A stretch of DNA of 64,000 nt from Actinomycetota bacterium (GTDB lineage: Bacteria; Actinomycetota; Acidimicrobiia; Acidimicrobiales; JAJPHE01): contig JAJPHE010000124.1 in the NCBI GenBank assembly GCA_021325435.1, forward strand, positions 3,921-67,920. The letters are read 5' to 3'. Position 1 is the first letter of the stretch, and the number at the start of each line of letters is the position of its first letter. Of the stretch, positions 3,126 to 18,957 are shown one piece after another. Below the pieces are notes generated by a model. That model did not search any database. It was not told where the DNA came from and saw nothing but the letters and a program-made list of their open reading frames with translations. Both the position numbers and the translations under genes were made by a program.

Positions 3126-4643
3126 TCAGTCGACGTAGGCCGGCGGCCCCTGGTACTGGAGGCAGGAGCACGACGAGAGGTACTCCTCGGTGCGGAACAT
3201 GTCGCCGCCGTCACGTCGCCCCTGGAACAGCTTGGCGCCGTACACCAGAGCGGGAGCGAAGCCGGTCCCCAGGGTCTGGGCCTGAGCGACGAACGAGTTG
3301 TTGTTGATCGTGGTGGTTATCCCGTTGACCACCCGCTGCAGGAAGAAGACGGCGTCGCAGGCCTGAGACGCCAGCCCCTCGTCGTTGGCGTTGCTGGAGC
3401 TGACGGGATAGCCGGCGGCGGCCTCGATCTGGTAGCAGAGGTCACGAGCCGGGTTGGCGTGCCAGCCCTGGTCGTACTGCTTGTCGTAGTCGACGTCGTC
3501 GACGGCCAGGCCCTTGTTCATCTCGTCGGACGGGTTGATCGACGCACCGGGGTTGTTGCCCGAGTTCATGCCGTAGCGCGGGTAGTACCCCTGTGACTTG
3601 GCCTGGTTCATCCACTCCAGAGTCAGCCCGTCGCCGGCCCAGACGCCGGCATGCCCGTCCTGAACGATGACATGGTCGATGCCCAGGGCCTTGAACTTCT
3701 GGACTGCGCTGCTCACCGCCGCCGTCATGTCGGCCACCGCCCCCAGCTGCTGGGGGACGCTGATGTAGGCGATCTGGGCCGGGGTGATGTGGTGAGACGA
3801 AAGGGCGGGCAGATAACCGTTGCTGATGGTGGCCCGGTAAGCGGGGTCGTCCCAGGTGACCAGGCCGAGCTTGCCCGAGAAGTAGCCGGCCCGGTAGAGC
3901 CCGCTCACCGTCACACTCCCCTGTCGGTCGAGGGCCGTCGCCTCGGGATCGACCAGGTGAGGATTCTGCTGGAAGGTGGCCTCCGTGGCGGCTGGGGCAC
4001 TGATCGGGACGGCGCCGGCCTTCTCGGCGCAGGCGATCTGGAGGGGGTCCTCTGAGGCGATGGCGAACACCTTGTTGTCCTGGGTCCAGTAGGCACAGGC
4101 CGACTGGTCCTGGGTGTTGGTGTCGGTGGTGACGTTGAAGTCGAAGTAGAGGGGCTGCAGTTTGCGACCGGCGAAGCCGCCGTGGGTGTTGGCGTAGTTG
4201 ACGGCGGCGTTGAAGACGTTGCGGAAGTCGTAGCTGGGGGCGGCGCCGGCGGCGCCGATGGCCCGGTCGGCCTGGGCCGACTGCGAGCTGTACTCGACGC
4301 CGACGTACATGGTTTGGTTGGTGACACCCGGCGCATTGGCTCCCACGAACTTGGAGGTGACCCCCGGGCCGCCGGTGCCCGAGCCCGATGAGCCAACCGC
4401 ATAGCTGCCGCCGCCCGACGAACCGGAGCCCGAGCCCGAGCCGGCGAGGGCACCCCCCGACCCGCTGTTGGCGCCGGAGGGGGACGATCCGTTGGTGGGC
4501 GAGTTCTGGGACGGGCCCGAAGGCATCGAGAGGCCGTTGGACGACGACCCCCCGGAGTGGCCGCTGCCGCTCTTGACTGTGGTTCCGCAGGCAGCCGCCA
4601 GCACCACCACGGCCCCCAGGGCGGCGATGCGCCTCGTTCTCAT
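3126..4643 (-). CDS. Secreted lipoprotein, tentatively a type-I periplasmic-binding-fold (LivJ-like) solute receptor
   Basis: ORF 3126..4643; ATG preceded by GAAGGAGG. Signal peptide with lipobox-like VVLAAAC, then a ~75-aa Gly/Ser-rich linker, then a ~400-aa globular domain. The fold assignment is tentative and needs an HMM search. Confidence 0.5.
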   Translation of the reverse strand: MRTRRIAALGAVVVLAAACGTTVKSGSGHSGGSSSNGLSMPSGPSQNSPTNGSSPSGANSGSGGALAGSGSGSGSSGGGSYAVGSSGSGTGGPGVTSKFVGANAPGVTNQTMYVGVEYSSQSAQADRAIGAAGAAPSYDFRNVFNAAVNYANTHGGFAGRKLQPLYFDFNVTTDTNTQDQSACAYWTQDNKVFAIASEDPLQIACAEKAGAVPISAPAATEATFQQNPHLVDPEATALDRQGSVTVSGLYRAGYFSGKLGLVTWDDPAYRATISNGYLPALSSHHITPAQIAYISVPQQLGAVADMTAAVSSAVQKFKALGIDHVIVQDGHAGVWAGDGLTLEWMNQAKSQGYYPRYGMNSGNNPGASINPSDEMNKGLAVDDVDYDKQYDQGWHANPARDLCYQIEAAAGYPVSSSNANDEGLASQACDAVFFLQRVVNGITTTINNNSFVAQAQTLGTGFAPALVYGAKLFQGRRDGGDMFRTEEYLSSCSCLQYQGPPAYVD

Positions 4644-4809: not shown

Positions 4810-5973
4810 TTAGCCGTCGAATCGGGCTCGGGAGGGGCCCCGCTCCTTGCTGGCTCGGGCCGCTACCGCCTCGGCTTCGCTGAGGGCCCGGAGGACGTTG
4901 CCCCCGGCGACCTTGGCGCATTCGGCTTCGCTCCAGCCGCGCTGGCCCAGCTCGGCGAACAGCTCGGGATAGCCGCTGACATCGTCGAGGCCGACGGGCA
5001 TGGCGTCGCAGCCGTCGAAGTCGCCTCCTATGCCGACGAAGTCGATGCCGGCGACCTCGCGGACGTGCTCGATGTGGTCGGCCACCTGGGCCACGGTTGC
5101 GGCCGGGCGAGGTGAGCGGCGCTCGAACTCGGCACCGAAGCTCATCCGACTGGACCAGTCACCGGGATCCAGGCCGGCGGTGGTCATGGCCGCTGACAGC
5201 TGGTCGGACCAGGCCGCGCACGCCGACGACACGAAGTAGGGGACGAAGGTCACCATGCACACCCCCCCATTGGCGGGGAGACGGGCGAGGATGACGTCGG
5301 GCACATTGCGAGGATGGTCGACCAGCTGCCGACAGGAGGAGTGGCTGAAGATGACGGGCGCCTCGCTGGTGTCTAGGGCGTCGGACATCGTCCCTTGGCT
5401 GACGTGCGAGAGGTCGACCAGCATCCCGAGGCGGTTCATCTCCCTCACCACCTCGTGCCCGAAGGGGCCGAGTCCACCCAGGCGGGCCTCGTCTGTGGCG
5501 GAGTCGGCCCAGGGCACGTTGTCGTTGTGGGTGAGGGTGAGATAGCGCGTCCCCAGGGCGTAGAGGGCTCGCAGGGCGGCCATCGAGCAGGCGATCGAGT
5601 GCCCACCCTCGGCGCCGATCAGCGATGCCACCCGTCCGCTGGCGAACACCGACCGGACCTCGTCGGCGGTGAGGGCCAGGCCGAGCTGGTCGGGGTGACG
5701 GGCGACGAGCTGGTGGACGAAGTCGATCTGCTCGAGGGTCGCAGCCACAGCGGCGTCCCCGGCCAGGCTGGAGGGCACATAGACCGACCAGAACTGGGCG
5801 CCTACTCCCCCCTGGCGTAGGCGGACCAGATCGGTGTGGGTGCCGGTCAGCCGGGTGGCCGGATCGAGCTGGTCCATGTCGTAGCCGGCCAGCTGACGGT
5901 GAGCCCACGGGAAGTCGTTGTGGCCGTCGATCAGCGGGTGACGGGCGAGCAGGGCGCGGGCAGATTCGTTCAC
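4810..5973 (-). CDS. Membrane (renal-type) dipeptidase, peptidase family M19
   Basis: ORF 4810..5973; GTG start overlaps the upstream stop as GTGA. M19 motifs IDGHNDFPW, VDLSHVS, IFSHSS, GIGGDFDG. Confidence 0.85.
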   Translation of the reverse strand: MNESARALLARHPLIDGHNDFPWAHRQLAGYDMDQLDPATRLTGTHTDLVRLRQGGVGAQFWSVYVPSSLAGDAAVAATLEQIDFVHQLVARHPDQLGLALTADEVRSVFASGRVASLIGAEGGHSIACSMAALRALYALGTRYLTLTHNDNVPWADSATDEARLGGLGPFGHEVVREMNRLGMLVDLSHVSQGTMSDALDTSEAPVIFSHSSCRQLVDHPRNVPDVILARLPANGGVCMVTFVPYFVSSACAAWSDQLSAAMTTAGLDPGDWSSRMSFGAEFERRSPRPAATVAQVADHIEHVREVAGIDFVGIGGDFDGCDAMPVGLDDVSGYPELFAELGQRGWSEAECAKVAGGNVLRALSEAEAVAARASKERGPSRARFDG

Positions 5974-7364
5974 GACGGCACAGCCGCCACCCTGGTGGCG
6001 AGGCGCCCTCCGATGTGAACGCCGCTCACCGTGCCGTCGGCCTCGCGCACGAAGTAGCCCTTCATCCCCTTGGCCGGCCCTTCGGCCACGACGTACTCCT
6101 CGCCGTCGGCCGACAGGAGCCCGAGGACGAAGGGGGGCTGCTCCTCGGGCACGTCCTCGCCCGACTCCTGGAGCATCTTGCGGGTCTCCGGCTTGATCTC
6201 CACCCTCGCCAGCAACCGTCCGGCCTCGGCGGTTATGTCACAGACAGCGGCGATCGTCTCGTACCGGCCGACGAAGCGGGCGAGGGCGTCGTCTCCGACG
6301 AGTACGGGCTCCGGCTCTCGCTCCACCACCCCCACGTAGTGTTCGAGCGCCCACTTGGACAACTGGTCGTTGAGCTCCGAGCCGTTCGGCCCGCAGTTGG
6401 TCATGGAACTGAAGGCGAAGCCGCGCTCGGGCACCATCAGGAAGTCGGAGTACTGGCCGTTGGTGGTGCCACCGTGACCGACGATCCGGACTCCGTCGAC
6501 GTCACGCAGCAACCAGCTGATGCCCACGTAGTCACCGAGGGCGCTGCCCTTCATCTCTACGGTCGGGTCCTTCATCCGATCCAACAGCTCCTTGGAGAGC
6601 AGCCGCTGACCGGCGGGGGTAGTCCCGTCGCCGAGATGGAAGCGGGCCCACTTGATCAGATCGCGCGAGTCCGACGAGATGCCCCCTGCCGGGGCGTTGC
6701 CCCGGGGAAGGGCCCAGGGCCGGGCGACCGTCACCCGGCCGTCGTCGTGGCGGGTGTGGCCCACCGCGAAGCGGCGGGTCATGATCTCGGTGGGGAAGAA
6801 GAAGGAGTGCTCCATGCCGAGCGGGGTGAGCAGGAGGTCGCGGATCGCCTGCTCATAGGTGGTGCCGCAGATCCGCGAGATGATCAGCCCGGCGACGGAC
6901 AAGGACGCGTTGTTGTAGGAGACGGTCGTGCCGAGCGGGCTGACCTGCTCGATCCCCGACATGAGAGCGACGTAGCGCTCGAGGGAGTCATCGCCGTCCC
7001 CGGTGTTGTCCATCAGGTCGCCCTGCCAGCCGGCGGTGTGGTTGAACAAGTGCAGGACGGTGACCTTCTCGGCGACCCCCGAGTCCTTGAGCTTGAAGTC
7101 GGGCAGGTAGGTCCGGACCGGGGCGTAGAGGGAGACCTTCCCCTGGTCCACCAGGCGAAGCATGGCCGTGGCCGTGAACGTCTTCCCGGTCGAGCCGAAC
7201 TGGAAGATGGTGTTCTCGTCGACCGGCAGCGGGTTCTCGACGCTGGTCACCCCGTGGTAGGCGTAGCGCTCCTCTCCGTCGGCGAGCACGCCCACCGAGA
7301 CCCCCGGAACCTCCAGCTCGGTGGCCAGCTCGGCGAGCTTGCCTTCGAGGTCGCGGTCTTGCAT
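5970..7364 (-). CDS. Serine hydrolase of the beta-lactamase fold (D-aminopeptidase/esterase-like)
   Basis: Trimmed from ORF 5970..7733 to ATG 7364 (MQDRDLEGKLAEL...), preceded by GGGAGGACAAAC. SxxK nucleophile motif FGSTGKTF. 464 aa with an extra C-terminal domain. Confidence 0.8.
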   Translation of the reverse strand: MQDRDLEGKLAELATELEVPGVSVGVLADGEERYAYHGVTSVENPLPVDENTIFQFGSTGKTFTATAMLRLVDQGKVSLYAPVRTYLPDFKLKDSGVAEKVTVLHLFNHTAGWQGDLMDNTGDGDDSLERYVALMSGIEQVSPLGTTVSYNNASLSVAGLIISRICGTTYEQAIRDLLLTPLGMEHSFFFPTEIMTRRFAVGHTRHDDGRVTVARPWALPRGNAPAGGISSDSRDLIKWARFHLGDGTTPAGQRLLSKELLDRMKDPTVEMKGSALGDYVGISWLLRDVDGVRIVGHGGTTNGQYSDFLMVPERGFAFSSMTNCGPNGSELNDQLSKWALEHYVGVVEREPEPVLVGDDALARFVGRYETIAAVCDITAEAGRLLARVEIKPETRKMLQESGEDVPEEQPPFVLGLLSADGEEYVVAEGPAKGMKGYFVREADGTVSGVHIGGRLATRVAAVPS

Positions 7365-7545
7365 GTTTGTCCTCCCGAGAGTCACCCGGCCCGGCGTTGG
7401 GGCTGCCGAGGTCGTCCCCACCAGTTGGTCGTCGGCCACACCCTGCATCCCCTGCCCACCCAAGCAGTCTCGTCCCTGTGGGCCCCGCCGGCGTGGTGCT
7501 AGCCGCCCAACCCGGGGGCCGGGGTTGGTCGTGCCGGACAGGGCG

Positions 7546-7866
7546 CTAGCCGGCGCGCCGCTCCGCCAGCAGCTGGGCCAGCCGAACGGCGTCGTCCAGC
7601 TGACGGTCGGCGGCGGCGCGGGCCGCCGCGTCCTCCCGGCGCCCGAGGTGCACCGCCAAGCCGGCCGAACCCAGACCGACCAGCGCCAGACCGACGGTGG
7701 CGGCGACCAGGGGAGCGACCTGCGGGGGAACAAACGAGAACCCGGCTGAGCGCCGCCAGGCCACAGCCATGAGGACGAACCCGAGACCGGCGAGGGCGAC
7801 CAGGATCCAGGCGAACCGCAATCCGGCGTCCCCCCACCAGCGGGTGATCGGACCAGCTGCCCTCAC
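7546..7866 (-). CDS. Small membrane protein (106 aa), unknown function
   Basis: ORF 7546..7866; GTG start overlaps the upstream stop (GTGA). Two hydrophobic helices followed by an Ala/Arg-rich C-terminal helix (AAARAAADRQLDDAVRLAQLLAERR). Confidence 0.4.
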   Translation of the reverse strand: MRAAGPITRWWGDAGLRFAWILVALAGLGFVLMAVAWRRSAGFSFVPPQVAPLVAATVGLALVGLGSAGLAVHLGRREDAAARAAADRQLDDAVRLAQLLAERRAG

Positions 7867-8189
7867 CGTTCGAGCACCCCGCGCAGGTCGTCGAGCACAT
7901 CAGCCAGCGCCTCCATCTGGCGGGCTCGCTTGGCGCCCTCCTGGCGCCTGACGCTCACGTTCACCACCACCAGGCCCACCATGATCAGACCGAGCCCGGG
8001 GAAGGCGGACGAGATCACGTAGGGCATCTGCCGGTAGACGTCGGCCTGACCGGCCACTTCCGCCCACGCCACGAACAACAAGGCGAACCCGGCCACCACG
8101 GCCGCCACCCCCAGCAAAGTGGGCACCAGCGAGGACGGGTCGGTGAGGAACGACCACGTCGACCCGCCGACCCCACCCGTCGCGGCCAT
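7863..8189 (-). CDS. Small membrane protein (108 aa), unknown function
   Basis: Trimmed from shadow-extended ORF 7863..9305 to ATG 8189 (MAATGGVGGSTWSF...). Two hydrophobic helices plus a charged C-terminal helix (RQEGAKRARQMEALADVLDDLRGVLER). Same architecture as the next gene. Confidence 0.4.
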   Translation of the reverse strand: MAATGGVGGSTWSFLTDPSSLVPTLLGVAAVVAGFALLFVAWAEVAGQADVYRQMPYVISSAFPGLGLIMVGLVVVNVSVRRQEGAKRARQMEALADVLDDLRGVLER

Positions 8190-8314
8190 GCGGGTGGCCG
8201 TCCGGACCGCTTCGGCCGGGGGGCTCTCGGCCCGGGCCCCGGCGGGCGGGGCGGATCCGGCCGGAGCCTCTTGACCGGTGGTTCGGGGCGGGGCCGGACG
8301 GCGGCGACCGGTGC

Positions 8315-9406
8315 TCACCGCCGCTGCCTCAGCTCGTCCACCAGGGCAGCAACCAGGGCGGCCCGTCGGGGCATCTCCGGCACCGACACCCACTCGCCCG
8401 GTGCGTGGGCCTGGTCGCCGACCGCCCCCAGCCCGTCGAGGGTGGGCACCCCCAGGGCGGCGGTGAAGTTGCCGTCGGAGCCGCCCCCCACCGCCACCGC
8501 GCTCAAGGGGCCGAACCCCAGCCGCTCGGCGTGGAACCGGGCCCGGTCGAACAGATCGGCCGACACCGCCTCCTCGAGGGGGGGACGCACGGACACCTCG
8601 ACCACCTCGACCCGGGCGTCGGCCAGGACGGCGGAGAGCCCGCCCAACCCTTCCTGGACCCGCCGCATCTCCGCCATGGTTGTCGCCCTCACGTCCACCG
8701 ACAGCGACGCTCGGTCCGGAACAGTGTTGATGGTGGTCCCCGCCGTCAGGACGGTGGGGGTGACCGTCGTCCCCCGGGCCGGGTCGGCCAGGTCGGCGGC
8801 GGCCAGGGCCTGGTGAGCGACCTCGATGGTGGCGTTGACGCCCCGCTCGGGCTCCAGCCCGGCGTGGGCCGCCCGGCCGAGCACGTCGATCCGGAAGCTG
8901 CCGACCCCCTTGCGGGCCGTCTTCAGGGCTCCGCCGGCCGACGGTTCCAGCACGAGGACGGCGTCGAGGCCCTCGGCGGTCTGCTCCACCAGCTGGCGGG
9001 AGGTGGTGGACCCCACCTCCTCGTCGCTGGTCACCAACACCGCCACCCCGTCGCGGTCGCCCAACAGGGTCAAGGCTTCGAACAGCTGGACCAGCCCGGC
9101 CTTCATGTCGAAGGCGCCGGGCCCGGTCGCCCGGTCGCCCTGGAGGGCGAAGGGCCATCCCTCGATCGTGCCGGTGGGCCACACCGTGTCGAGGTGGCCG
9201 AGGAGCAGGACGCGCGGCGCCCCGAACTGCCAAAGAAGATGAACCCGGCCGTCGACCACGATCGCTTGCGGTTCGACACCCAGCCGCCGGCTCGAGAGCT
9301 CGCACACCGAGTCGGCGCAGGCCGCGGTGGCGCCGGCATCTTCAGAGGGGGACTCGCGCTCGACCAGCCGACGCAAGTCGTCGCACAACTCGGCGACGGC
9401 GGTCAT
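8315..9406 (-). CDS. Peptidase M20 family amidohydrolase (N-acyl/N-succinyl-amino-acid deacylase or carboxypeptidase type)
   Basis: ORF 8315..9406. M20 motifs LLLGHLDTVWP, GAFDMKAG, SDEEVGS, GGGSDGN. Confidence 0.8.
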   Translation of the reverse strand: MTAVAELCDDLRRLVERESPSEDAGATAACADSVCELSSRRLGVEPQAIVVDGRVHLLWQFGAPRVLLLGHLDTVWPTGTIEGWPFALQGDRATGPGAFDMKAGLVQLFEALTLLGDRDGVAVLVTSDEEVGSTTSRQLVEQTAEGLDAVLVLEPSAGGALKTARKGVGSFRIDVLGRAAHAGLEPERGVNATIEVAHQALAAADLADPARGTTVTPTVLTAGTTINTVPDRASLSVDVRATTMAEMRRVQEGLGGLSAVLADARVEVVEVSVRPPLEEAVSADLFDRARFHAERLGFGPLSAVAVGGGSDGNFTAALGVPTLDGLGAVGDQAHAPGEWVSVPEMPRRAALVAALVDELRQRR

Positions 9407-9513
9407 CGACCCGCCTCCGGCGGCTGGGCGTCGGAGGTGAAGACCCGGGCCAGGAACAGCCCGAGCAGCGCCAGCGCCAGGGGCACCAGCAGAGAGGCCG
9501 ACGACCTAAACAC
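9403..9513 (-). CDS. Possible 36-aa single-helix membrane peptide
   Basis: Read by hand: GTG at 9513, translation VFRSSASLLVPLALALLGLFLARVFTSDAQPPEAGR. Its TGA overlaps the ATG of the M20 gene (ATGA). No homology evidence. Below the ORF-track size cut-off. Confidence 0.2.
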   Translation of the reverse strand: MFRSSASLLVPLALALLGLFLARVFTSDAQPPEAGR

Positions 9514-9681
9514 GGGCTTGGCTCATGCGCGCTCCTGGGTGCCGACACGGAGACCCCGGCCGGGGGAGCCATCCTCCCCGTCCGGCGGTGGGCCGCCGAT
9601 TGTAGGGGAGGACCATTCCCGCCCCTGGCCGTGGTGCAGGCCACCCAGGCGCGCTGGCGGGCGGGATGGCAGGGTGGGACG

Positions 9682-10788
9682 GTGAAGCTCACCGCGGTGG
9701 AGCTCCGGCGGGTCTCGCTGCCTCTGGTGGCGCCCTTCCGGACCTCCTTCGGTACCGAAGTCGAGAAGGACGCCCTGCTGGTCCGGGCCATCTCGCCGGA
9801 GGCGGAGGGATGGGGGGAATGCGTCGCCATGGCGCACCCGCTCTACTCCTACGAGCACCTCGAAGGCGCCCGCGACGTCATCCGCCGCTTCCTGCTCCCC
9901 CGCCTGTTCGCCGCCGGTGATGTGACGGCCCAGGGAGTCGGCCACCTGCTGGAGCCGATCAAGGGTCATCCGATGGCGAAGGCAGCGGTGGAGATGGCGG
10001 TCCTCGACGCCGAACTGCGCCAGTCGGGCACGTCTTTCGCCTCCTTCTTCGGGGCGGTGCGCGACCGTGTCCCGTCCGGGGTGTCGGTGGGGATCATGGA
10101 CTCCATCCCTCAACTGCTCGACGCGGTGGGCGCCTACCTCGAGGCTGGCTACGTGCGCATCAAGCTCAAGATCGAACCGGGCTGGGACGTGGATCCGGTG
10201 CGGGCGGTGCGCGAACGGTTCGGCGATGAGCTGCTCCTGCAGGTCGACGCCAACACCGCCTACACCCTCGGCGACGCCCGCCAGCTGGCCCGCCTCGACC
10301 CCTTCGACCTGCTGCTCATCGAGCAGCCGCTGGCCGAGGACGACGTCGCCGGCCACGCCGAGCTGGCCCGGCGGATCCGCACCCCGGTCTGTCTCGACGA
10401 GTCGATCACCTCGGCTGCCACCGCCGCCGCCGCCATCTCCATGCAGGCGTGCCAGGTCATCAACATCAAGCCGGGGCGGGTCGGCGGCTACCTCGAGGCC
10501 CGCCGCATCGCCATCGTGGCGGCGGCCAACGGTGTGCCGGTGTGGTGCGGGGGGATGCTGGAGACCGGCATCGGCCGGGCGGCCAACGCCGCCCTGGCGG
10601 CCTGCCTCGAGTTCACCCTGCCCGGGGACGTCTCCGGGTCGGACCGCTTCTACGCCCGCGACATCACCGCCCCGCAGCTGATCCAGGATGGGCACCTGCC
10701 GGTGCCGACCGGCCCCGGCACCGGGGTCGAGGTCCTGGACGAGGTTCTCGCCGATGTGACAACCGACGTGGAGACGATCAGGCCCTGA
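9682..10788 (+). CDS. Enolase-superfamily o-succinylbenzoate synthase / N-acylamino-acid racemase (NSAR) family enzyme
   Basis: Trimmed from ORF 9631..10788 to GTG 9682 (VKLTAVELRRVSLPL...). MLE-subgroup catalytic set is visible: KxK (YVRIKLKIEPG), metal ligands QVDAN / LIEQP / CLDES, second Lys INIKPGRVGG. Confidence 0.85.
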   Translation: MKLTAVELRRVSLPLVAPFRTSFGTEVEKDALLVRAISPEAEGWGECVAMAHPLYSYEHLEGARDVIRRFLLPRLFAAGDVTAQGVGHLLEPIKGHPMAKAAVEMAVLDAELRQSGTSFASFFGAVRDRVPSGVSVGIMDSIPQLLDAVGAYLEAGYVRIKLKIEPGWDVDPVRAVRERFGDELLLQVDANTAYTLGDARQLARLDPFDLLLIEQPLAEDDVAGHAELARRIRTPVCLDESITSAATAAAAISMQACQVINIKPGRVGGYLEARRIAIVAAANGVPVWCGGMLETGIGRAANAALAACLEFTLPGDVSGSDRFYARDITAPQLIQDGHLPVPTGPGTGVEVLDEVLADVTTDVETIRP

Positions 10789-13700
10789 CCGTCAGCGCCC
10801 GGTCGAGCGCCGCTCGGATGCGGCGGGCCAGGTCCGGGCCGACACCGTCAACCGCCATCAGCTGTTCGAGGCTGGCGACCCGGAGCTCCTCTTCGGTGGG
10901 GAACGCCTCGAGCAGGACCCGCCGGCGAGCGGCGCCGATGCCGGGGACCGACTCCAGCAGGCGAGTCAGCCCGCCCTCGGCCGGCTCCCCGCCCCGGCCG
11001 GAGCGCTCGATGGCAGTGACGCTGCCGCCCAGGTAGGAGTCCACCACCAACGGGTTGGAGCGGACCTCCTCGGGGCTGCCCTCGGCGATGATCTGACCGC
11101 TGTCCATGGCCACGATGCGGTCGGCGATGCCCATGATCAACGGCATGTCGTGCTCGATGACGACGAGGGTTAGACCGAGCTGGTCGCGCAGCGCCTCGAG
11201 CAGACCCCCCAGGGCCTCGGTCTCGCGTTGGGCGATGCCCGATGAGGGCTCGTCCAGCAACAGGCACGAGGGCTCGAGGGCGACGAGGCAGGCCAACTCG
11301 GCGATCCGGCGGGTTCCGGTCGACAGCTCCTGGATCTGCTTGTCGCGATAGCGGTCCAAGCCCATGAAGGCGACCAGCTCCCGCGCTCGAGGCTGCTTGC
11401 GTCGCTCGGCCCGGCCGGCGCCCAGGACAGAGGTCAGGAAGCGGGTGGGCGTGACCCGCTCGAGGGCCAGCATGACGACCTCGGTGACGGTCATCGTCGG
11501 GAAGAGGGCGGCGTCCTGGAAGGAGCGAATGAGGCCGAGGCGGGCCCGCTCCTCCGGGGACAGCTGCGACACGTCGCGGTGGTCGAAGATGACCGATCCG
11601 GCGTCGGGCCGGGTGAAACCACCGAGCAACTCGAAGGTGGTGGTCTTGCCCGCCCCGTTAGGACCGATGAGCCCGACCGTCTCGCCGACCCGCACGGAGA
11701 AGGACACGTCGTCTACCGCGGTGATGCCGCCGAATCGCTTCACCAGCCCGCGAGCCTCCAGGAGCCGGGTGCCGGGCAGGCCGGCGCCGGCGGGCCGGGC
11801 GGCGGCCGGCCGCTCGGCCGTCACCACCGTCTTCGCCATCGACGACACCGACCCGGCCGCGGCGTCGTCCTGGCCGGCGAAGGGTGGCTCGGGGTCGATG
11901 CCGTGCCAACGGGCCACGACTCTGGCCAGGCGGTCGCGGGCCGGTTCCAGCACCTGAACCAGCCCGCCCGGCTTCCAGAGGATGATCAAGAGGGCGCCGA
12001 GGGTGGTGGCGGCCAGGCCGATGCTGCCGATGTTGAGAAGCGGCAGGCCCAGCACCCACACCGCTCCGAGGATCGGGCCCATCAGGACACCGACGCCACC
12101 CAGCACGGTCATGACGACGACGTTGAGGCTGGCGGAGGCGGGGAAGGTCGAGGCCCCGACGATGGCGAGGGAGTGGCCGTAGGCGGCGCCGCCGATACCG
12201 GCCATGAACCCGGCGATCAGATAGCCCTGCAGCTTCACCAGGCTGGAGCGGACGGAGAAGGCCCGGGCGGCGTCCTCGTTGTCGCGCACCGCCACCAGCA
12301 ACCGGCCGAAGCCGCTGCGACGGATGTTGCGGGCCACCAGCAGCACCACGAGGAACAAGACGAGGGCGAAGTAGTAGTAGCTGTGTCCGCTGTCGAGCGG
12401 GTGGCCGAACACGACCGGCCTACCGGGGTTGACGCCATCGCCGAGCATCCACGACTGGGTGAGCAGCCAGGCGGGAGTGGCCAAGGCGAAGCCGAGGGTC
12501 GTCACCGTGAGCATGAGGCCCCTGATGCGCAGGGCCGGCAGGCCGATCACGACCGACACCAGGCCCGCGGCCAGCCCGGCGTAGAGCAGGGCGAGAGGGA
12601 AGTCGCCGAAGCGGCTGGACACCCGATAGGAGACGACGGCACCGATGGCGGCCACGCCGAACTGACCCAGGGTGAGCTGCCCGCCCAGCCCGGTCAGCAC
12701 ACCGATGGACAGGCCCACCATGGCGTAGCCGATGATGCCGGTGATGCTGACCGACAGGCTGTTGGAGGTGAACGCGGGCACGGCGACCAGTAGGAGCAGG
12801 CCGGCGAAGGCGACGCCGGGTCCCACCCACCGGATGGTGGGCAGCTGACGGAGCCGGTCCGGTAGGGGGCGCAGCGCCTGCACCGCGGCCCAGCTGCCCT
12901 TCTCCTCGTCGCGGCCCCGCCGTTGGCGCTGCAACACCAGCACCACGAGGATGATCACGAACAGCGTGACCTCGACCAGGCCGGACCGGGGGTAGTTCCA
13001 GAGCAGGATCTGCTCGACGATGCCGAGGCCGACACCGCCGGCCAGCGCCAGCGGCAGACTGTTCATGCGGCCGATGACCGCCGCGGTCATGGCTCGAAGC
13101 AGGAGTCCGGGCCCGAAGGTGTCACCGCTGGTGAAGCCCTGGGTGGGGGCGGTGAGGATGGCGCTGAAGGCGGACAGGGCCCCGGCGATGGCCCACGCCA
13201 GCGATGACATCCGACTGGCGAATATGCCCGACATGCGGGCCGCCTCGGGGTTGGCGGCGGCCGCCCGCATGGCCATCCCGAAACGGCTGCGTTTGAGGAA
13301 TACGGCGATGGCAAGCACGGTCAGGGGCGACAGCACGAGCATGCCCGAGTAGGCCTGGGTGATCCGCAGGCCTCCGACGTTGAACACCGGCAACCACGAC
13401 GGCTGGGGGTAGATGGCGCCGGCGGCGGCGGTGTTGTTGATGACCGAGGCGAAGATGAGGAGGAATTGGCCCACTCCGAGGGTCGCGACCACGCTCATGA
13501 TCCGGGGGGCGTGGCGCAGGCGCCGCACCACCCCGGTCTCGGCCGCCGCCCCGGTGCCGGCGGCGGCCGCCAGGGCCAGGGGAAAGGCGACCCAGTAGGG
13601 GATGTGCCAGCTGACGGCGACCAGCCCGAACACGGCGGCGCCGAAGGCGCCGATCTGTCCGTGGGCGAAGTTGATGATGCGGTTGGTCCGGTAGATGAGG

Positions 13701-13903
13701 ACCAGACCCACGGCCAGCAGCCCGTAGGTGAGCCCGATGATCGTGCCGAGCAGGATCACCGGCCAGGGGGTGGATCCGGCGATGACGTGGCGCGAGTCCA
13801 GCTGCGACAGCAGGACCTTGGCCACCACCACCGCGGCGGCGAAGCCGGCGAACCCCGCCGCTCGGCGGTGGTCCGCCACCAGGACCTTCAGGCGTTCCCT
13901 CAT
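10778..13903 (-). CDS. Fused branched-chain-type ABC transporter: LivH-like permease + LivM-like permease + LivG-like ATPase + C-terminal helix-hairpin-helix (HhH2) domain (1041 aa)
   Basis: ORF 10778..13903; ATG overlaps the upstream stop (ATGA). LivH-like block with INFAHGQIGAFGA. Second permease block (~aa 350-690). ATPase with GPNGAGKTT, LSTGTRR, LLLDEPSSG, VIEHDM and a LivG-type end VVDSYLGG. Then a tail LLESVPGIGAARRRVLLEAFPTEEELRVASLEQLMAVDGVGPDLARRI resembling the UvrC-type HhH2. Confidence 0.85.
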   Translation of the reverse strand: MRERLKVLVADHRRAAGFAGFAAAVVVAKVLLSQLDSRHVIAGSTPWPVILLGTIIGLTYGLLAVGLVLIYRTNRIINFAHGQIGAFGAAVFGLVAVSWHIPYWVAFPLALAAAAGTGAAAETGVVRRLRHAPRIMSVVATLGVGQFLLIFASVINNTAAAGAIYPQPSWLPVFNVGGLRITQAYSGMLVLSPLTVLAIAVFLKRSRFGMAMRAAAANPEAARMSGIFASRMSSLAWAIAGALSAFSAILTAPTQGFTSGDTFGPGLLLRAMTAAVIGRMNSLPLALAGGVGLGIVEQILLWNYPRSGLVEVTLFVIILVVLVLQRQRRGRDEEKGSWAAVQALRPLPDRLRQLPTIRWVGPGVAFAGLLLLVAVPAFTSNSLSVSITGIIGYAMVGLSIGVLTGLGGQLTLGQFGVAAIGAVVSYRVSSRFGDFPLALLYAGLAAGLVSVVIGLPALRIRGLMLTVTTLGFALATPAWLLTQSWMLGDGVNPGRPVVFGHPLDSGHSYYYFALVLFLVVLLVARNIRRSGFGRLLVAVRDNEDAARAFSVRSSLVKLQGYLIAGFMAGIGGAAYGHSLAIVGASTFPASASLNVVVMTVLGGVGVLMGPILGAVWVLGLPLLNIGSIGLAATTLGALLIILWKPGGLVQVLEPARDRLARVVARWHGIDPEPPFAGQDDAAAGSVSSMAKTVVTAERPAAARPAGAGLPGTRLLEARGLVKRFGGITAVDDVSFSVRVGETVGLIGPNGAGKTTTFELLGGFTRPDAGSVIFDHRDVSQLSPEERARLGLIRSFQDAALFPTMTVTEVVMLALERVTPTRFLTSVLGAGRAERRKQPRARELVAFMGLDRYRDKQIQELSTGTRRIAELACLVALEPSCLLLDEPSSGIAQRETEALGGLLEALRDQLGLTLVVIEHDMPLIMGIADRIVAMDSGQIIAEGSPEEVRSNPLVVDSYLGGSVTAIERSGRGGEPAEGGLTRLLESVPGIGAARRRVLLEAFPTEEELRVASLEQLMAVDGVGPDLARRIRAALDRALTVRA

Positions 13904-16125
13904 TTACGTGCCCCGGCGCCGGCGCCGTGAAGGAACACCGCCCGTAGCAGATCGTCGCGCCGGAGCAGGTCGGCGGCCCGCCCGTCGAAGCGCATCTCGC
14001 CCTTCTCCATGAAGTAGGCGTGCTCGACCAGGTTCAAGGCGATGCTTACCGACTGCTCGACCAGCACCACGGCCGTCCCGTCACTGTTGATGCGGCGCAC
14101 CATCTCGAGCAGCTGGCCCACGATGATCGGCGCCAGCCCGAGTGAGAGCTCGTCGATCAGCAGCAGGCGGGGACGGAGCATGAACGCCTTGGCCAGGCCG
14201 AGCATCTGCTGCTCACCGCCCGACAGGGTGGCGGCCAGCGAGTTTCGGCGCTCCTCGAGGCGGGGGAACGCCGACAGGGCGGTGTCGATGCCGCGCTCCA
14301 CGGCTGCCCGGTCGCGGCCCAGGGTGTAGCCGAAGCCACGAAGGTTCTCGACAACCGTCATGGGCCCGAAGACCGCCCGGCCGCCGGGGATCTGGGTGAT
14401 GCCGAGGCGGGTGCGTCGCTCGGCGTCGAGGTAGGTGATGTCCTGGCCCTGGAAGCGGACCGAGCCCCGGGTCGGCAGGCCGATACCGGAGATCACCTTG
14501 AGCAGGGTGGACTTGCCGGCTCCGTTCACGCCGAGGAGGGCGACCATCTCGCCGTCCTCCACGACGAAGTCGACGCCGAAGAGCACCTGCAGATGCCCGT
14601 ACGAGAAGTCGACGCCGCGCGTCGCCAGCATCGGCAGATGGCCGCCCCCGCCCCGGATGCGGCGGATCTCCTCCTCTTCGACGACCTCCTCGATCATGCG
14701 GTTGAGGTCGGCCCGGATGAATCGTCCCGCGCTGGCGATGACGAGGGCACCCAGCACACCGGGAATCGCCACCGCCACCATGGTCCCGCTCACGCCGTAC
14801 TGGGCCTGCACCCCGGCGAGGAGCAGCACGCCGACCAGGCTGCCGGCGGCGAGCGAGATGGCCGCCAGCGACTGGGCGTGTGGGCGCATCCGGGCCGGGA
14901 TGATCGACAGGAGCGATATCGAGAGCAGGGGCAGCACGACGACCGCCAACGCTCCGGCCACCCCGAAGCAGGCCAACATTCCGCCGTACACCGGGATCAG
15001 GCCCCCGAGGGCGATCATGGTCACGGCACCGGCCTCGAGGTAACCGGCGGCACGCAGCACCCGGGCCGGGTTGGCTCGGAACTGCTTCTCTCCCCTGCCT
15101 CCGTAGAGCAAGAGGGCGGCGACGCCGCACCCGTAGTAGTAGGCGAAGAAGAGCCCCCGACCGCCCGGCCCCATGTTCCACCGCTGGTCGAGGAAGTAGG
15201 AGAGGAAGGTGCCGAGCGGGACGCTCAACACCCCGAACACGGCGAGCCCGGCGAAGATCCTCCTGGCCGTCGGGATCAGCAGCATGCGTCGGCAGATCTC
15301 CCAGAAGCCGAGGGTTACCTCGCGCTCGGGCACGGGGTCCTGCTCGCCGTGGGCCACGTGAACGGCCGCCCGCAGCCGCTCGGTGTCCCACCGGCCGAAG
15401 CCGGGGTCGCGCAGTCCCAGGCTGGACAGGGCCATGGCGATGGAGATGGCCCCGAGGGCGACGAACACACCCCGCCAGGTGAGGTGGAAGACGCCGGCCA
15501 GCAGGGCCACCAGCAGGGGCGAGACCCCGTACCCGAAGGAGTAGAAGGCGTTGTAGGTCGACAGGGCCCGTACCCGGGCCTCCGGGTGGTAGCTGTCGAG
15601 GACCAGAGGGCTGTGCAGGGCGACCACGCTCCCGGTCGTGAGGCCGTCGAGCACGAGGATGGCGACCAGCCCGACCAGGGAGGTGACGAAACCGGTGAAG
15701 AGGGTGATGACACTCCAGATCAGTCCGGTGGCGATGCACAGGAGCGCTCGACGGGCCCGGTTCTGGGTCAGGGATGCCACCGGCAGAGGGGCGACCGACT
15801 GGGCGATGAACTGAATCGACCGGGCGGCGGCGATGGCCGCCACCGACACGCCCAGCGTCCGGGTTATCTCCGGGGTGAGAACGGTGAAGGCGTAGGTCTG
15901 GAACGAGTCCGAGGTGGACAGCAGGCCGAGAGCGATGAGCGGGTAGTAGGACAGTCCGTACTGACGGGCCAGGCGGCGGAAGCTCGGCGTCTTCTCGTCG
16001 CCGGTGACCCCCAGTAGGGCCCGGGCCGAGTCGCGCATCGCCTCGCGCGTCTCGTAGATGACATCTATCTCGTCTACATCGCTCTGCTGAGCCGAAGCGG
16101 ACCTGGCGGTAGACGGGTTGCTCAC
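13900..16125 (-). CDS. MFS-like membrane domain fused to LivF-like ABC ATPase (741 aa)
   Basis: Trimmed from ORF 13900..16344 to GTG 16125 (GTGA overlap with the upstream stop). The N-terminal ~500 aa are multi-helix with MFS-like loops (SLTQNRARRALL, LDGLTTGS, YHPEARVRALSTYNAFYSFGYGVSP). The C-terminal ATPase has GVNGAGKST, LSGGEQQML, LLLIDELSLGLAP, VLVEQS. Confidence 0.8.
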   Translation of the reverse strand: MSNPSTARSASAQQSDVDEIDVIYETREAMRDSARALLGVTGDEKTPSFRRLARQYGLSYYPLIALGLLSTSDSFQTYAFTVLTPEITRTLGVSVAAIAAARSIQFIAQSVAPLPVASLTQNRARRALLCIATGLIWSVITLFTGFVTSLVGLVAILVLDGLTTGSVVALHSPLVLDSYHPEARVRALSTYNAFYSFGYGVSPLLVALLAGVFHLTWRGVFVALGAISIAMALSSLGLRDPGFGRWDTERLRAAVHVAHGEQDPVPEREVTLGFWEICRRMLLIPTARRIFAGLAVFGVLSVPLGTFLSYFLDQRWNMGPGGRGLFFAYYYGCGVAALLLYGGRGEKQFRANPARVLRAAGYLEAGAVTMIALGGLIPVYGGMLACFGVAGALAVVVLPLLSISLLSIIPARMRPHAQSLAAISLAAGSLVGVLLLAGVQAQYGVSGTMVAVAIPGVLGALVIASAGRFIRADLNRMIEEVVEEEEIRRIRGGGGHLPMLATRGVDFSYGHLQVLFGVDFVVEDGEMVALLGVNGAGKSTLLKVISGIGLPTRGSVRFQGQDITYLDAERRTRLGITQIPGGRAVFGPMTVVENLRGFGYTLGRDRAAVERGIDTALSAFPRLEERRNSLAATLSGGEQQMLGLAKAFMLRPRLLLIDELSLGLAPIIVGQLLEMVRRINSDGTAVVLVEQSVSIALNLVEHAYFMEKGEMRFDGRAADLLRRDDLLRAVFLHGAGAGARK

Positions 16126-16649
16126 AACCCCGCCCTCTGCATGCGCAGGTCCAGCTCCCAGGCGCTCTCCCCGATGCGGTGCCCGGACGTGTCCATTAGC
16201 ACCACGACGATGGCATGCAGCTGGACGCGCTCGGTGCCGGCGAGCGGCGGTATCTGGGGGATGGTGAGGTGGGTGTCCGTGGTCGTGTAGATCTGCCGGG
16301 CGGCCAGGTAGGCGGGGTCGGGGCAGCCCCGCTGGTGGAGACACTGCTCGTCGTTGGCCGCCACCGCACGCATGGTCTGGTCGGGCCGCACCGGCTGGCG
16401 GTCGACGAACACGGCGAAGTAGCCGGCGTCGGGGGTCGGCGGGGCGGAACCGGGCGCCTCCACCCGGAACTGCTTGATCGTCCAGCGGACAGTCAGCGGC
16501 GCGGCCACCAGCGCCCGGTCCGGAGGCGCCACAAAGTGGAGGCGTTCGTCTACCCGGAAGCGGAGGTCCTGCATGTGGGTGAGGCCACAGGCGCTGGCCC
16601 CCAGGGCAATCGCCATCAGGGCCGCCCCGTGGATCCGCCTTCCGCGCAC
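16122..16649 (-). CDS. Putative secreted/lipoprotein of unknown family, first gene of the transporter operon
   Basis: Frame of ORF 16122..16670. I prefer GTG 16649 (GGAGGG 6 nt upstream) over the first GTG at 16670. N-terminus VRGRRIHGAALMAIALGASAC looks like a signal/lipoprotein peptide. The mature ~150-aa domain is not recognised. Confidence 0.5.
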   Translation of the reverse strand: MRGRRIHGAALMAIALGASACGLTHMQDLRFRVDERLHFVAPPDRALVAAPLTVRWTIKQFRVEAPGSAPPTPDAGYFAVFVDRQPVRPDQTMRAVAANDEQCLHQRGCPDPAYLAARQIYTTTDTHLTIPQIPPLAGTERVQLHAIVVVLMDTSGHRIGESAWELDLRMQRAGL

Positions 16650-16766: not shown

Positions 16767-18419
16767 TCAGCCGCCGGCGTCCCCCGGTCGGTCCAGGAAC
16801 CTCAGCTGCAGTTCGGCGACCAGCCGCTCGTCGGGATCGGAAAGGTCCAAGGCGAACGTCTCAGCGATGCGCCGCAGGCGGTAGCGGAACGTGTTGGGGT
16901 GCACGTTCACCCGGGCGGCGGCGGTGGCCACGTCGCCAAAGGCGTCGAAGTAGGAGCGCAGGGTGGCCAGGTGAGCCGTGCCCCGGGCGGCGTCCTGCTC
17001 GGCCAGGGCCCGGACTGGACCTTCGGTCAGCTCCGGGTGGGCCTCGGCCAGCCGTTCGAGGCGGCGCAGCACCACCTGGGCACGCACGTCGTCGAGGGTG
17101 GCGGCCACCGACCCTTCCCCCAGCACGGCGAGCACGTCGTCGGCCTCCACCCGCGAGCCGGCGAGCCCCGGCAAGGTTGTGATCGACCCGACCCCGGCGC
17201 GCAGTCGGGCGTGCAGGGCCTCGTCGGCCCGGTCGACGATGGCGCTCGCCAGGGAGAGGACCGACTCGGATCCTTCGTCGCCGGCCAGGGGGACCAGGGC
17301 ATAGACGCGACCGCCGGCGACGGCACAAGACGCGCGGCGGCGGTAGGACTCGCAGTACAGCGCGACCAGGTCGGCCACCCTCTGGGCCCGGATGGCCGCG
17401 GTGGCGTCATCGGACTCGCCGGCGTCGAAGGCCACCACCGCCACGGGTGTGTCCGGCTGGATGCCGAGGAGGGCGCGGACGCGGTCCCCCCGCTCGCGCC
17501 CCTCGAGCACGGCCAGCAGGGCGTCGGCGCGGCGGTGTCGGTCGACGTCACTGGCGCTGCGGTGGGCCAGCAGGTGGAGGGCGGCGATGTCGGCCGCCTC
17601 GCGCAGGGTCCGTTCCGCCTCCGGACCGAGGGCACGGTCACCCTCGATGACCCAGATGCTGCCGAGCAACTCCCCTCCCGCCCGGACGGCCACCGCCACG
17701 CGGGCCAGGTAGCCGGGGAAGTCGGCGAAGTCGCCCACGTGCACAACCTCACCGGTCTGCCACAACCGCCGGAACACCCCGGCTTGACGCAGTCGCTCCA
17801 TCCACTCGGACGGCACCTGTCGGCCGAGGATTGTCTGCTGGCGCGGCTCGTCGATCGGGTGGTCGAGGCTCGAGTAGGCCAGCACCCGGCTGTGGGGGTC
17901 CTCGATGGTGGTTGCTCCCCCGACCATGGCCGCCACCGCGTTGGCCAGGGCGAACAGGTCGCCGAGGGGCACGTCTCCGACCCCGCGGGTGGCCGGCAGG
18001 CTGACGGTCGAGGCGGTGACGAGGAGCGAGAACAGCTGCCCCCACGAGACGCCGGCCCGGGCGGCCAACACGGCGACACCGGTGGCGTCGGCCACGGCCA
18101 TCAGCTCCGGGTCGGGGTCCGTCTCTCCGCTCTGGCGGAAGACGACCGCCGCCACCCCAGCTCCACCGAGGCGTCTGGCGAGGTCAACCCTCGCCGTGGG
18201 AGTGTCCACGCCGACCGCCAGCACGATGCTTCCCGGCTCCGGCCCGGCGGCGTCGCCCAGATCGAGGATGGACGGGTGCCCGACGGGCACGGCCAGCCCT
18301 CGGGGCGCGGCCACCACGTCCAGAACGGCCGGCTGGAGCCGCTCGACCAGCACCTCCAGGGTCCGCCCGCCCCCGTCGGGGCTGCCCGGGTCGGCTGGCG
18401 TCGCGGTCTGCCGGGCCAC
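16767..18419 (-). CDS. PucR/CdaR-family transcriptional regulator
   Basis: Trimmed from ORF 16767..18722 to GTG 18419 (start uncertain). C-terminal PucR-type HTH LRSYFDAFGDVATAAARVNVHPNTFRYRLRRIAE. About 550 aa. Confidence 0.75.
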   Translation of the reverse strand: MARQTATPADPGSPDGGGRTLEVLVERLQPAVLDVVAAPRGLAVPVGHPSILDLGDAAGPEPGSIVLAVGVDTPTARVDLARRLGGAGVAAVVFRQSGETDPDPELMAVADATGVAVLAARAGVSWGQLFSLLVTASTVSLPATRGVGDVPLGDLFALANAVAAMVGGATTIEDPHSRVLAYSSLDHPIDEPRQQTILGRQVPSEWMERLRQAGVFRRLWQTGEVVHVGDFADFPGYLARVAVAVRAGGELLGSIWVIEGDRALGPEAERTLREAADIAALHLLAHRSASDVDRHRRADALLAVLEGRERGDRVRALLGIQPDTPVAVVAFDAGESDDATAAIRAQRVADLVALYCESYRRRASCAVAGGRVYALVPLAGDEGSESVLSLASAIVDRADEALHARLRAGVGSITTLPGLAGSRVEADDVLAVLGEGSVAATLDDVRAQVVLRRLERLAEAHPELTEGPVRALAEQDAARGTAHLATLRSYFDAFGDVATAAARVNVHPNTFRYRLRRIAETFALDLSDPDERLVAELQLRFLDRPGDAGG

Positions 18420-18546: not shown

Positions 18547-18957
18547 GTGGAGACCGAGAAGGTGTGTGTGAACCTCCCCGCCGCCGAGCTGGGCAAGATC
18601 GACGTGCTGGTGGCGGAGGGGCTGTTCGCCTCGCGGACCGATGTCATCCGTGCCGGCATCCGCTCGGTGTTGGATGCCCACGCCCAGCCGGTCGAGCGGG
18701 TGGCGTCCTTCGGGGCCCGCATCGGGTATCAGCTGCTGCTCCGGTCCGAGTTGGAAGAGGCGCTCCGGCTCGGGCGCCGTCTGAACCTCTTCGTGGTCGG
18801 CGTCCTGCGCATCCAGAACTCGGTGACCCCCGAACTGGCCGACGGAGCCATCGACCGGATCCGGATATTCGGCGCCGTGCGAGGGCCGGCGGAGGTGCTG
18901 GCCCGGCTCGAGCCTCGGATCGTGCGGGGAACCGAGAACCTGGAGGGCCGGGCGTGA
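18547..18957 (+). CDS. Ribbon-helix-helix (CopG/Arc-like) domain protein with ~90-aa C-terminal domain
   Basis: ORF 18547..18957 (GTG, purine-rich GGAGGGTAAGGGGG upstream). N-terminal pattern KVCVNLPAAELGKIDVLVAEGLFASRTDVIRAGIRSVL fits a beta-strand plus two helices, as in RHH repressors. Confidence 0.6.
   Translation: METEKVCVNLPAAELGKIDVLVAEGLFASRTDVIRAGIRSVLDAHAQPVERVASFGARIGYQLLLRSELEEALRLGRRLNLFVVGVLRIQNSVTPELADGAIDRIRIFGAVRGPAEVLARLEPRIVRGTENLEGRA

Follow-up and report, generated by a model that had tools for sequence, protein, structure and literature searches.

How does a nutrient importer come to end in a domain of the kind that closes UvrC, and what could the domain do there? This question is raised by a minus-strand gene at 10778-13903 in a stretch of 64,000 nucleotides from an Actinomycetota bacterium (GenBank assembly GCA_021325435.1, contig JAJPHE010000124.1, positions 3,921 to 67,920), to which we refer as the window. 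A preliminary description of the window had placed a UvrC-like double helix-hairpin-helix module, written (HhH)2 or HhH2, at 10781-10969 on the C-terminus of an ATP-binding cassette (ABC) transporter ATPase. These coordinates correspond exactly to residues 979-1041 of the encoded protein, which we call the tail. We found that the module is real, that it appears to be maintained in a small family of actinobacterial transporters, and that a weak contact with the DNA backbone is the likeliest of its possible uses.

The open reading frame (ORF) at 10778-13903 was translated on the minus strand without interruption into 1041 amino acids (aa), with the C-terminus ...NPLVVDSYLGGSVTAIERSGRGGEPAEGGLTRLLESVPGIGAARRRVLLEAFPTEEELRVASLEQLMAVDGVGPDLARRIRAALDRALTVRA followed by the stop. 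Its features are the following.

10778..13903, minus strand: the whole gene, encoding LivH, LivM, LivG, linker and (HhH)2 as a single polypeptide of 1041 aa; stop codon at 10778-10780.
12944..13747, minus strand: LivH-like permease domain, residues 53-320 (BPD_transp_2, PF02653; E=2.3e-49 for the whole protein, the best-matching stretch being 53-320).
12020..12742, minus strand: LivM-like permease domain, residues 388-628 (BPD_transp_2, PF02653; 86.8 bits on sub-sequence 341-700).
11024..11767, minus strand: LivG-type ABC ATPase including the BCA_ABC_TP_C motif, residues 713-960 (ABC_tran 94.5 bits; BCA_ABC_TP_C 36.5 bits).
10997..11023, minus strand: post-LivG motif SVTAIERSG, residues 961-969, common to tail-bearing and tail-less homologues.
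10970..10996, minus strand: linker RGGEPAEGG, residues 970-978, of low complexity and flexible as judged from the alignment and from low model confidence.
10802..10969, minus strand: (HhH)2 domain, residues 979-1034, with five helices (978-985, 991-1000, 1004-1009, 1012-1016 and 1023-1040).
10934..10942, minus strand: hairpin 1, G988-I989-G990, then AARRR; neither glycine is replaced in any of 34 homologues.
10838..10846, minus strand: hairpin 2, G1020-V1021-G1022, then P1023-x-L-A-x-R1028-I1029; across 34 homologues none of the residues G, G, P, L, A, R and I varies.
10781..10801, minus strand: C-terminal extension RALTVRA, residues 1035-1041; the ending ...VRA before the stop is also found in tail-less sisters.

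The host had been described as a LivG ATPase. A LivG domain does precede the tail, and the top NCBIfam match of the ATPase domain is the LivG model PRK11300 (residues 713-959, 216.8 bits, below the 362-bit equivalog cutoff), but the protein is a fused LivH-LivM-LivG and not an ATPase subunit. By these matches it is assigned to the Liv/HAAT-type ABC importers at family level, not as an equivalog. Two details of the C-terminus also had to be revised. The linker had been put at ~25 aa, but the segment from LivG to the domain is 18 aa long and its first nine residues (SVTAIERSG) are the conserved family motif rather than linker; and the protein does not end at ...AALD but continues for the seven further residues RALTVRA. 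Linkers of the homologues are 8-40 aa long, rich in Ala, Pro, Thr and Ser, of low complexity and variable length, and could not be aligned. In a full-length AlphaFold2 (AF2) model, the predicted local distance difference test score (pLDDT) was 75-90 for the ATPase domain and 76-87 for the tail while residues 960-976 between them fell below 50. The low confidence of the linker, its low complexity and its unalignable character in homologues suggest that the HhH2 is flexibly tethered, and since the tail follows the cytoplasmic ATPase domain with no membrane segment between, it must be a cytoplasmic module, one copy per transporter.

Residues 979-1034 fold, almost beyond doubt, into a true (HhH)2 domain of the UvrC/ERCC1/Hef type. 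A Pfam search with the last 90 aa, which the preliminary description had named as a check, returned a significant match to HHH_5 (E=6e-12, 46.3 bits against a cutoff of 27), and HHH (39.5 bits, cutoff 24) and HHH_2 (32.1 bits, cutoff 27) were likewise above their cutoffs; as proposed, a UvrC-like (HhH)2 module is thus fused behind an ABC ATPase domain of the Liv type. The two G-[IV]-G hairpins read from the letters were also found as described, G988-I-G990 and G1020-V-G1022, spaced 32 residues apart as in (HhH)2 modules. Top local matches of the tail in NCBIfam were to the extreme C-termini of the UvrC, Hef and DisA models. A PDB search with a profile of 34 tails retrieved ERCC1 (8e-10), E. 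coli UvrC (1kft, 1.2e-9) and Hef (3e-9), followed by PolX, LigA, FAAP24, DisA and XPF (sequence and profile matches to ERCC1, UvrC, Hef, PolX, LigA and DisA were at 1e-9 to 1e-10), and the window tail by itself could be aligned end to end with residues 166-216 of T. maritima UvrC (2nrt). Structure prediction, a further check that had been suggested, gave from the tail alignment an AF2 model with a pLDDT of 86 and the five-helix HhH2 fold (helices 2-10, 17-26, 30-34, 38-42 and 49-66 in tail numbering). Foldseek superimposed this model on solved HhH2 domains with template modeling (TM) scores of 0.70-0.82 and root-mean-square deviations (rmsd) of 1.1-2 Å overall, and on those of DisA, ERCC1 and UvrC with TM 0.74-0.80 and rmsd 1.1-1.4 Å. 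The profile, the two-hairpin motif and the compact, RuvA domain-2-like fold of the (HhH)2 family, with five helices from two HhH units and a connector, were therefore all found in the tail.

Two flanking genes enter into the interpretation of the tail.

13900..16125, minus strand: partner gene of 741 aa, with MFS_1 (residues 69-363) and a LivF-type ATPase (499-732); it overlaps the start of the HhH2-bearing gene by 4 nt.
9631..10788, plus strand: convergent enolase-superfamily gene of the o-succinylbenzoate synthase (OSBS)/N-succinylamino-acid racemase (NSAR) type (TIGR01928, 291 bits, cutoff 200.65).

The 3' ends of the tail gene and of the convergent gene overlap by 11 nt (10778-10788), so that the last codons and the stop of the former are antisense to the end of the latter. 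This overlap, together with the fact that some tail-less homologues run antisense into their neighbor, could speak for an artefact, that is, read-through of a stop, a frameshift, or a chimeric assembly with a uvrC fragment. The identical protein, however, has been recorded from four contigs of independent origin (it is deposited as HZT64348.1, from a metagenome-assembled genome (MAG) labeled Acidimicrobiales, under the bare name 'ATP-binding cassette domain-containing protein'), and the same architecture with the same neighbors on both sides was found in seven loci from different samples. There is no stop or change of frame from LivG into the tail, whose GC content at the three codon positions (0.86/0.48/0.86) is the same as in the rest of the gene and, at 0.86 in the third position (GC3), of the coding type. 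UvrC nuclease domains do not adjoin the tail. On the four-contig record, the seven loci, the uninterrupted ORF and the coding-like GC3, we rejected read-through or misassembly, the probability of which we consider negligible.

We assessed how widely the tail occurs by counting homologues as clusters at 90% identity, the full-length profile search having scored up to 8000 candidates. The tail was present in 33 full-length proteins among the best 120 of the ~1,700-1,900 fused homologues detected, which with the window protein makes 34 full-length carriers; one truncated homologue and several fragments, P0136 and P0148 among them, are further examples. A profile search with the tail-bearing full-length proteins recovered the same set plus the truncated member, and the tail family is estimated at about 35 clusters out of the roughly 1,700-1,900. 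All carriers are derived from metagenomes or MAGs, and the few that are named bear Mycobacteriales or Frankiales labels. Precomputed Pfam records of the homologues list an HhH domain, but no source annotation names the fusion. Other searches were of less use for a census. The pattern V[PD]GVGP[ED]LA, which was taken from a subset of seven tails and limits the census accordingly, scanned against genomes gave 20 loci, one of which is the fusion (in a Frankiales MAG, on the contig of P0063); in the remaining 19 no Liv-type ATPase match stood beside the HhH2. A metagenome scan with the LivG end plus the tail yielded almost only tail-less or generic LivG genes and no new fusion loci among the matches listed. 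A word-indexed protein search with the tail profile returned only fragments of at most 126 aa (UvrC ends, ComEA and a few LivG-HhH) and was unusable for counting full-length members.

Within the family the module is well conserved. The 56-residue domain shows no indel across the homologues, its insertion point is identical in all of them, and ten positions are invariant in the 34 tails (G988, G990, L1015, G1020, G1022, P1023, L1025, A1026, R1028 and I1029). In the tails inspected, the third residue after hairpin 1 is R or K. Among four close loci, the ratio of nonsynonymous to synonymous substitution rates (dN/dS) was 0.13-0.33 for the tail as compared to 0.03-0.14 for the ATPase domain. The absence of indels, the invariant residues and the low dN/dS together rule out read-through and show that the tail is under purifying selection, weaker than that on the core. 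Pairwise identity of the homologues is lower in the tails (60%) than in the core (82%).

The same comparisons bear on whether the tail might be a nearly neutral passenger, a UvrC-derived fragment fused by chance and persisting without meaningful function. Such a view would draw on the faster evolution of the tail relative to the core, on its presence in only ~35 of the detected fused homologues, on about 12 apparent losses, including those in the sister lineages of the window, that left the operon content visibly unchanged, and on the dN/dS of the window tail against other tails (0.6-0.8, at saturating distances). It is at odds with the dN/dS values among close relatives, with ten invariant positions and no indel in 56 residues that stand beside an unalignable linker, and with a predicted fold that is still confident; moreover, a neutral coding extension of 190 nt in a genome of 70%+ GC would soon decay or be truncated. 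We consider a passenger quite unlikely.

The losses deserve a closer description, since absence or variability of the tail in close orthologues had been named beforehand as a sign of spurious read-through. The tail is kept in ~35 clusters under purifying selection, yet it is absent from the closest orthologues (~80% core identity), an absence that we read as repeated loss, so that the suspicion of read-through was not borne out. When the gene of the sister P0001 was aligned with that of the window, we observed a single clean in-frame gap of ~165 nt that covers almost exactly the HhH2; the flanks of the gap align, including the shared terminal ...VRA and stop that overlap the convergent gene. 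In a neighbor-joining tree of the core, drawn without support values, the 34 carriers are scattered within a clade of 81 leaves, and parsimony on this tree requires 12 losses after a single gain, or else 12 gains. The tails have their insertion point in common, the SITAIERSG motif precedes them, and several lineages also share an ALD-x-AL extension; we therefore read the pattern as a single ancient capture, after which the module was deleted many times over (about 12 losses).

The fused Liv/HAAT transporters that lack the tail (in Kribbella, Nonomuraea, Actinomadura and Actinocrispum, and in MAGs such as P0001 and P0003) are 64-82% identical over the LivH-LivM-LivG core, carry the same SITAIERSG motif and are annotated as 'branched-chain amino acid ABC transporter permease/ATP-binding protein'. 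Unlike the window protein, they lack the HhH2 and stop 9-40 residues past ...YLGG, in many cases after a short K/R-rich stretch; the two such loci that were examined (P0001 and P0003) have the same MFS-LivF partner and the same neighborhood as the window. The Lys/Arg-rich ends, for example KPAKKTTRARKTTAKAR, were seen in P0031, P0032, P0035, P0041, P0049, P0069 and P0103-P0108, among others. In P0009, P0010, P0016 and P0026, which are also tail-less, the transporter ORF runs antisense into the convergent neighbor (...VSTSVV...) and acquires a meaningless C-terminal extension. The net charge of the tail-less ends averages +2.5, with 40 of 79 at +3 or more, as compared to a mean of +0.7 for the linkers of the tail-bearing proteins. 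These short basic ends may fit a recurrent polyanion-contacting role of this C-terminus, for which they would be a simpler substitute.

As to the source of the module, several observations point to UvrC. An exhaustive HMMER search with the tail against 1.84 billion representatives gave 389 hits at E<=1e-3, and among the best 109 of these the only recurrent non-HhH partner domain was UvrC_RNaseH (27 of 109). By sequence, the closest known domains are the C-terminal (HhH)2 modules of UvrC (2nrt and 2nrx from T. maritima, 1kft from E. coli, 8b0q from D. radiodurans), which are 38-41% identical to the window tail with rmsd of 1.1-1.2 Å (2nrx: 1.1 Å, 41%). In UvrC as in the transporter the HhH2 stands at the C-terminal end, behind a flexible hinge. 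In contrast to UvrC, the 1041-aa protein shows nothing but BPD_transp_2, ABC_tran and BCA_ABC_TP_C ahead of the HhH2, GIY-YIG, UVR and RNase H-like domains all being undetected, and the UvrC equivalog models match it only by their last ~55 residues (35 bits against a cutoff of 451). A second difference is the short C-terminal extension of the window tail (ALDxAL...), which is common to several other transporter tails. The window tail resembles UvrC more than the tails of the main group do: its hairpin 1 is PGIG and it keeps A-S-L-E-Q-L, as opposed to RGLG...FGSNGSLHGAS, and it scores up to 147 against UvrC ends and a median of 122 against the tails of its own family. An even stronger resemblance to UvrC is seen in fragment P0148, also a transporter tail (FGSLQAIERASLDEL). 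We take the ancestral module to have been UvrC-derived and the window copy to have either changed little from it or drifted on its own. An independent capture of a UvrC end in the window lineage was considered on account of these scores and is not favored, given the same insertion point, the shared ALD-x-AL extension and the UvrC-like or intermediate fragments P0136 and P0148.

In the NCBI MAG labels, the window protein and its tail-less sisters (L004 and L105) are Acidimicrobiales and the main tail-bearing group (L002 and L003) Mycobacteriales/Frankiales; across these labels the core identity is ~76% and the synteny identical. This hints either that the cluster has moved horizontally between actinobacterial classes or that the MAG taxonomy is loose.

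What the domain does can be approached from its relatives. (HhH)2 motifs contact the phosphate backbone of the minor groove without sequence specificity, and the HhH2 of UvrC binds single-strand/double-strand junctions and supports 5' incision; the C-terminal half of UvrC is monomeric (PMC10085695). We propose that a UvrC-like HhH2 was captured once, in the lineage from which a clade of uncultured soil Actinobacteria descends, that it has been kept by purifying selection in ~35 lineages and cleanly deleted in about a dozen, that the tethered tail would make a weak (micromolar), sequence-independent contact with the DNA phosphate backbone, and that this contact would hold the transporter, through the avidity of patches of transporters, against the nucleoid surface at the membrane. 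For the central step, namely that the tail on the cytoplasmic face of the transporter is a weak, non-specific DNA-backbone binder, we estimate a probability of about 0.5, judging from the conserved hairpins and the R/K residues that flank them. A weak DNA contact is the likeliest use because the tail retains both hairpins with the basic residues after them, its closest relatives bind DNA as monomers, and the complex has no second HhH2.

The C-terminal HhH of DisA (9y4s from M. tuberculosis, 7y0d from M. smegmatis) is the best structural match of the tail (TM 0.80, rmsd 1.2-1.3 Å) and exemplifies, in actinobacteria, an HhH2 that serves for DNA contact on an enzyme other than a nuclease. DisA itself, though, is a diadenylate cyclase whose soluble octamers display many HhH domains, and its identity to the tail is ~32%. 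ComEA offers an HhH that is membrane-associated and binds DNA non-specifically, and it gave weak matches to the tail (2duy, E=2.5e-6, second hairpin only; TIGR01259, 0.0031). The HhH2 of ComEA is extracytoplasmic and serves DNA uptake, whereas the transporter tail must be cytoplasmic.

A number of points weigh against DNA binding by the tail. HhH2 domains also occur as purely protein-protein modules, as in ERCC1-XPF, the AR domains of NusA and FAAP24-FANCM. The net charge of the domain is ~+1 by a hand count from the sequence, which is not strongly basic, and there is only one HhH2 per transporter. A single HhH2 is weak: the C-terminal half of D. radiodurans UvrC has a dissociation constant (Kd) of 1.6 µM, and deletion of the HhH2 barely altered the binding of full-length UvrC (PMC10085695). 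The window tail is an outlier: its identity to the other tails is 48%, against 60% among those tails themselves, and together with its elevated dN/dS against them this may reflect relaxed constraint on the tail in the window's own lineage. Its nearest core relatives at ~80% identity (P0001, P0003, P0005, P0019, P0009, P0010 and P0016) are tail-less, as is every listed homologue from a named cultured genus (Kribbella, Nonomuraea, Actinomadura and Actinocrispum). Having apparently been lost ~12 times, the tail is evidently a dispensable accessory and not needed for transport. Finally, the short Arg-rich ends of the tail-less proteins could be a by-product of the 70%+ GC composition.

As the main rival we considered that the tail is a protein-protein module without DNA binding, which would either pair transporters through HhH2-HhH2 contacts in the manner of Hef/XPF or recruit or sequester a cytoplasmic partner; we regard this as doubtful. 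ERCC1-XPF, Hef, FAAP24-FANCM and NusA HhH2 domains are among the structural and sequence matches of the tail, and several of them work by dimerization or partner binding. The HhH2 domains of ERCC1, XPF, Hef and FAAP24 have the same five-helix fold as the tail (E 8e-10 for ERCC1 and 3e-9 for Hef; TM 0.70-0.76), but they are obligate homo- or heterodimers, whereas the transporter has one HhH2 and its partner subunit none. Thus no HhH was matched in the MFS-LivF partner, the C-terminus of which is ...LRAVFLHGAGAGARK, and HhH2 pairing inside one transporter is therefore impossible; the earlier suggestion that the tail dimerizes the nucleotide-binding domains is disfavored for the same reason. Pairing is further at variance with the nearest sequence relatives being UvrC tails, as the C-terminal half of UvrC is strictly monomeric (PMC10085695). 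In all 34 tails both hairpins match the G-h-G consensus completely and are still flanked by basic residues, which does not favor a role in protein contacts. HhH units that serve protein contacts only (XPF, the NusA AR domains) usually lose both features.

Recruitment of a partner has precedent. Accessory domains on the ATPases of ABC importers, as in MalK, MetN and ModC and the CBS domains of OpuA, are the main known way in which transport is coupled to regulation. MalK carries an extra cytoplasmic domain after the nucleotide-binding fold that binds EIIAglc and sequesters the activator MalT, which links the state of the transporter to gene regulation, so that regulator-binding C-terminal domains on importer ATPases are established (PMC6906923). 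The likeness is one of function only: the regulatory domain of MalK has an unrelated fold and is rigidly packed and dimeric, while the window tail is predicted to be tethered and single per complex. A Pfam scan of the 1041-aa protein found no TOBE or MalK-type beta-rich regulatory domain, and the tail is all-helical. A flexible tether would suit the capture of a diffusing partner, and the adjacent PucR-type regulator (HTH_30; 16767-18419), conserved beside the transporter where the flank reaches, is a candidate. No candidate covaries with the tail, however, and the regulator and the other neighbors are found equally in tail-less loci.

Returning to the weak DNA contact, any particular physiological role for it, be it localization, a membrane-nucleoid link, or coupling of the state of the transporter to nearby DNA or to the adjacent regulator, is speculation and, taken singly, unlikely to be right. 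We see only a slim chance for a DNA-contacting membrane machine in which the chromosome is tethered and the ATPase or substrate cycle controls access to nearby DNA or to the PucR-type regulator. Such a machine would be a 'trigger transporter' with DNA as its direct readout, and the basic ends of the tail-less relatives would be a cruder version of the contact.

No description of an HhH-ABC transporter fusion, or of a DNA-binding fold at this place on an importer ATPase, was found in full-text searches of the literature, in keeping with the statement in the preliminary description that none was known, and the source annotation of the protein names nothing beyond the ATP-binding cassette. What is new is a known transporter family and a known domain in an unexpected combination. 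If the tail binds DNA, it would provide a simple, genetically tractable case of direct membrane-nucleoid contact by a nutrient transporter, and the tail-less sisters in the same operon context would serve as natural 'knock-outs' for comparison. If it binds protein, it would extend the adaptor repertoire of HhH2 beyond nucleic-acid metabolism. The practical weight of either is limited by the small family (~35 clusters), its restriction to uncultured soil Actinobacteria and the dispensability of the tail.

The neighborhood of the transporter is the same with and without the tail and comprises the PucR-like regulator, a 175-aa lipoprotein, MFS-LivF, the transporter and the convergent OSBS/NSAR-type gene. 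In all nine loci examined, the MFS-LivF gene lies upstream of the LivH-LivM-LivG gene. The top match for residues 499-732 of the partner is the LivF model PRK11614 (181.7 bits against a cutoff of 441, hence family level only). Its fusion of MFS_1 with LivF is an odd pairing, in that a secondary-transporter fold is joined to an ABC ATPase. The convergent enolase-superfamily gene is a conserved neighbor in both tail-bearing and tail-less loci; M20, M19, beta-lactamase-fold and amidohydrolase genes are further shared, and related loci contain an additional Amidohydro_3 enzyme. The PucR-like regulator was a conserved neighbor where the flank reached that far. The remaining features of the window that belong here are listed below.

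16122-16649, minus strand: predicted lipoprotein of 175 aa with the lipobox LGASAC, directly upstream of the transporter genes; no Pfam or NCBIfam match.
8315-9406, minus strand: M20 deacylase.
5970-7364, minus strand: beta-lactamase-fold hydrolase.
4810-5973, minus strand: M19 dipeptidase.
3126-4643, minus strand: predicted lipoprotein of 505 aa with a Ser/Gly-rich linker of ~90 aa and the lipobox LAAAC; no Pfam or NCBIfam match.
18547-20635, plus strand: exporter-like three-gene module (RHH_8 small DNA-binding protein, ABC ATPase, ABC2_membrane permease), divergent from the PucR-like regulator.

Since Pfam called no LivJ/K-type (Peripla_BP_6) binding protein within 23 kb around the gene, one of the two predicted lipoproteins may be an unrecognized substrate receptor. 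The presence of conserved enzymes of amino-acid and peptide processing beside the transporter suggests that the compounds taken up and catabolized through the cluster at 4810-10788 are D- or N-acylated amino acids or peptides, not branched-chain amino acids. Neither tRNA genes nor Rfam families were found at threshold anywhere in the window (1-64000). The RHH_8/ABC module was missing from L004, the sole tail-less locus with enough flank, and was present in three tail-bearing loci (L001-L003).

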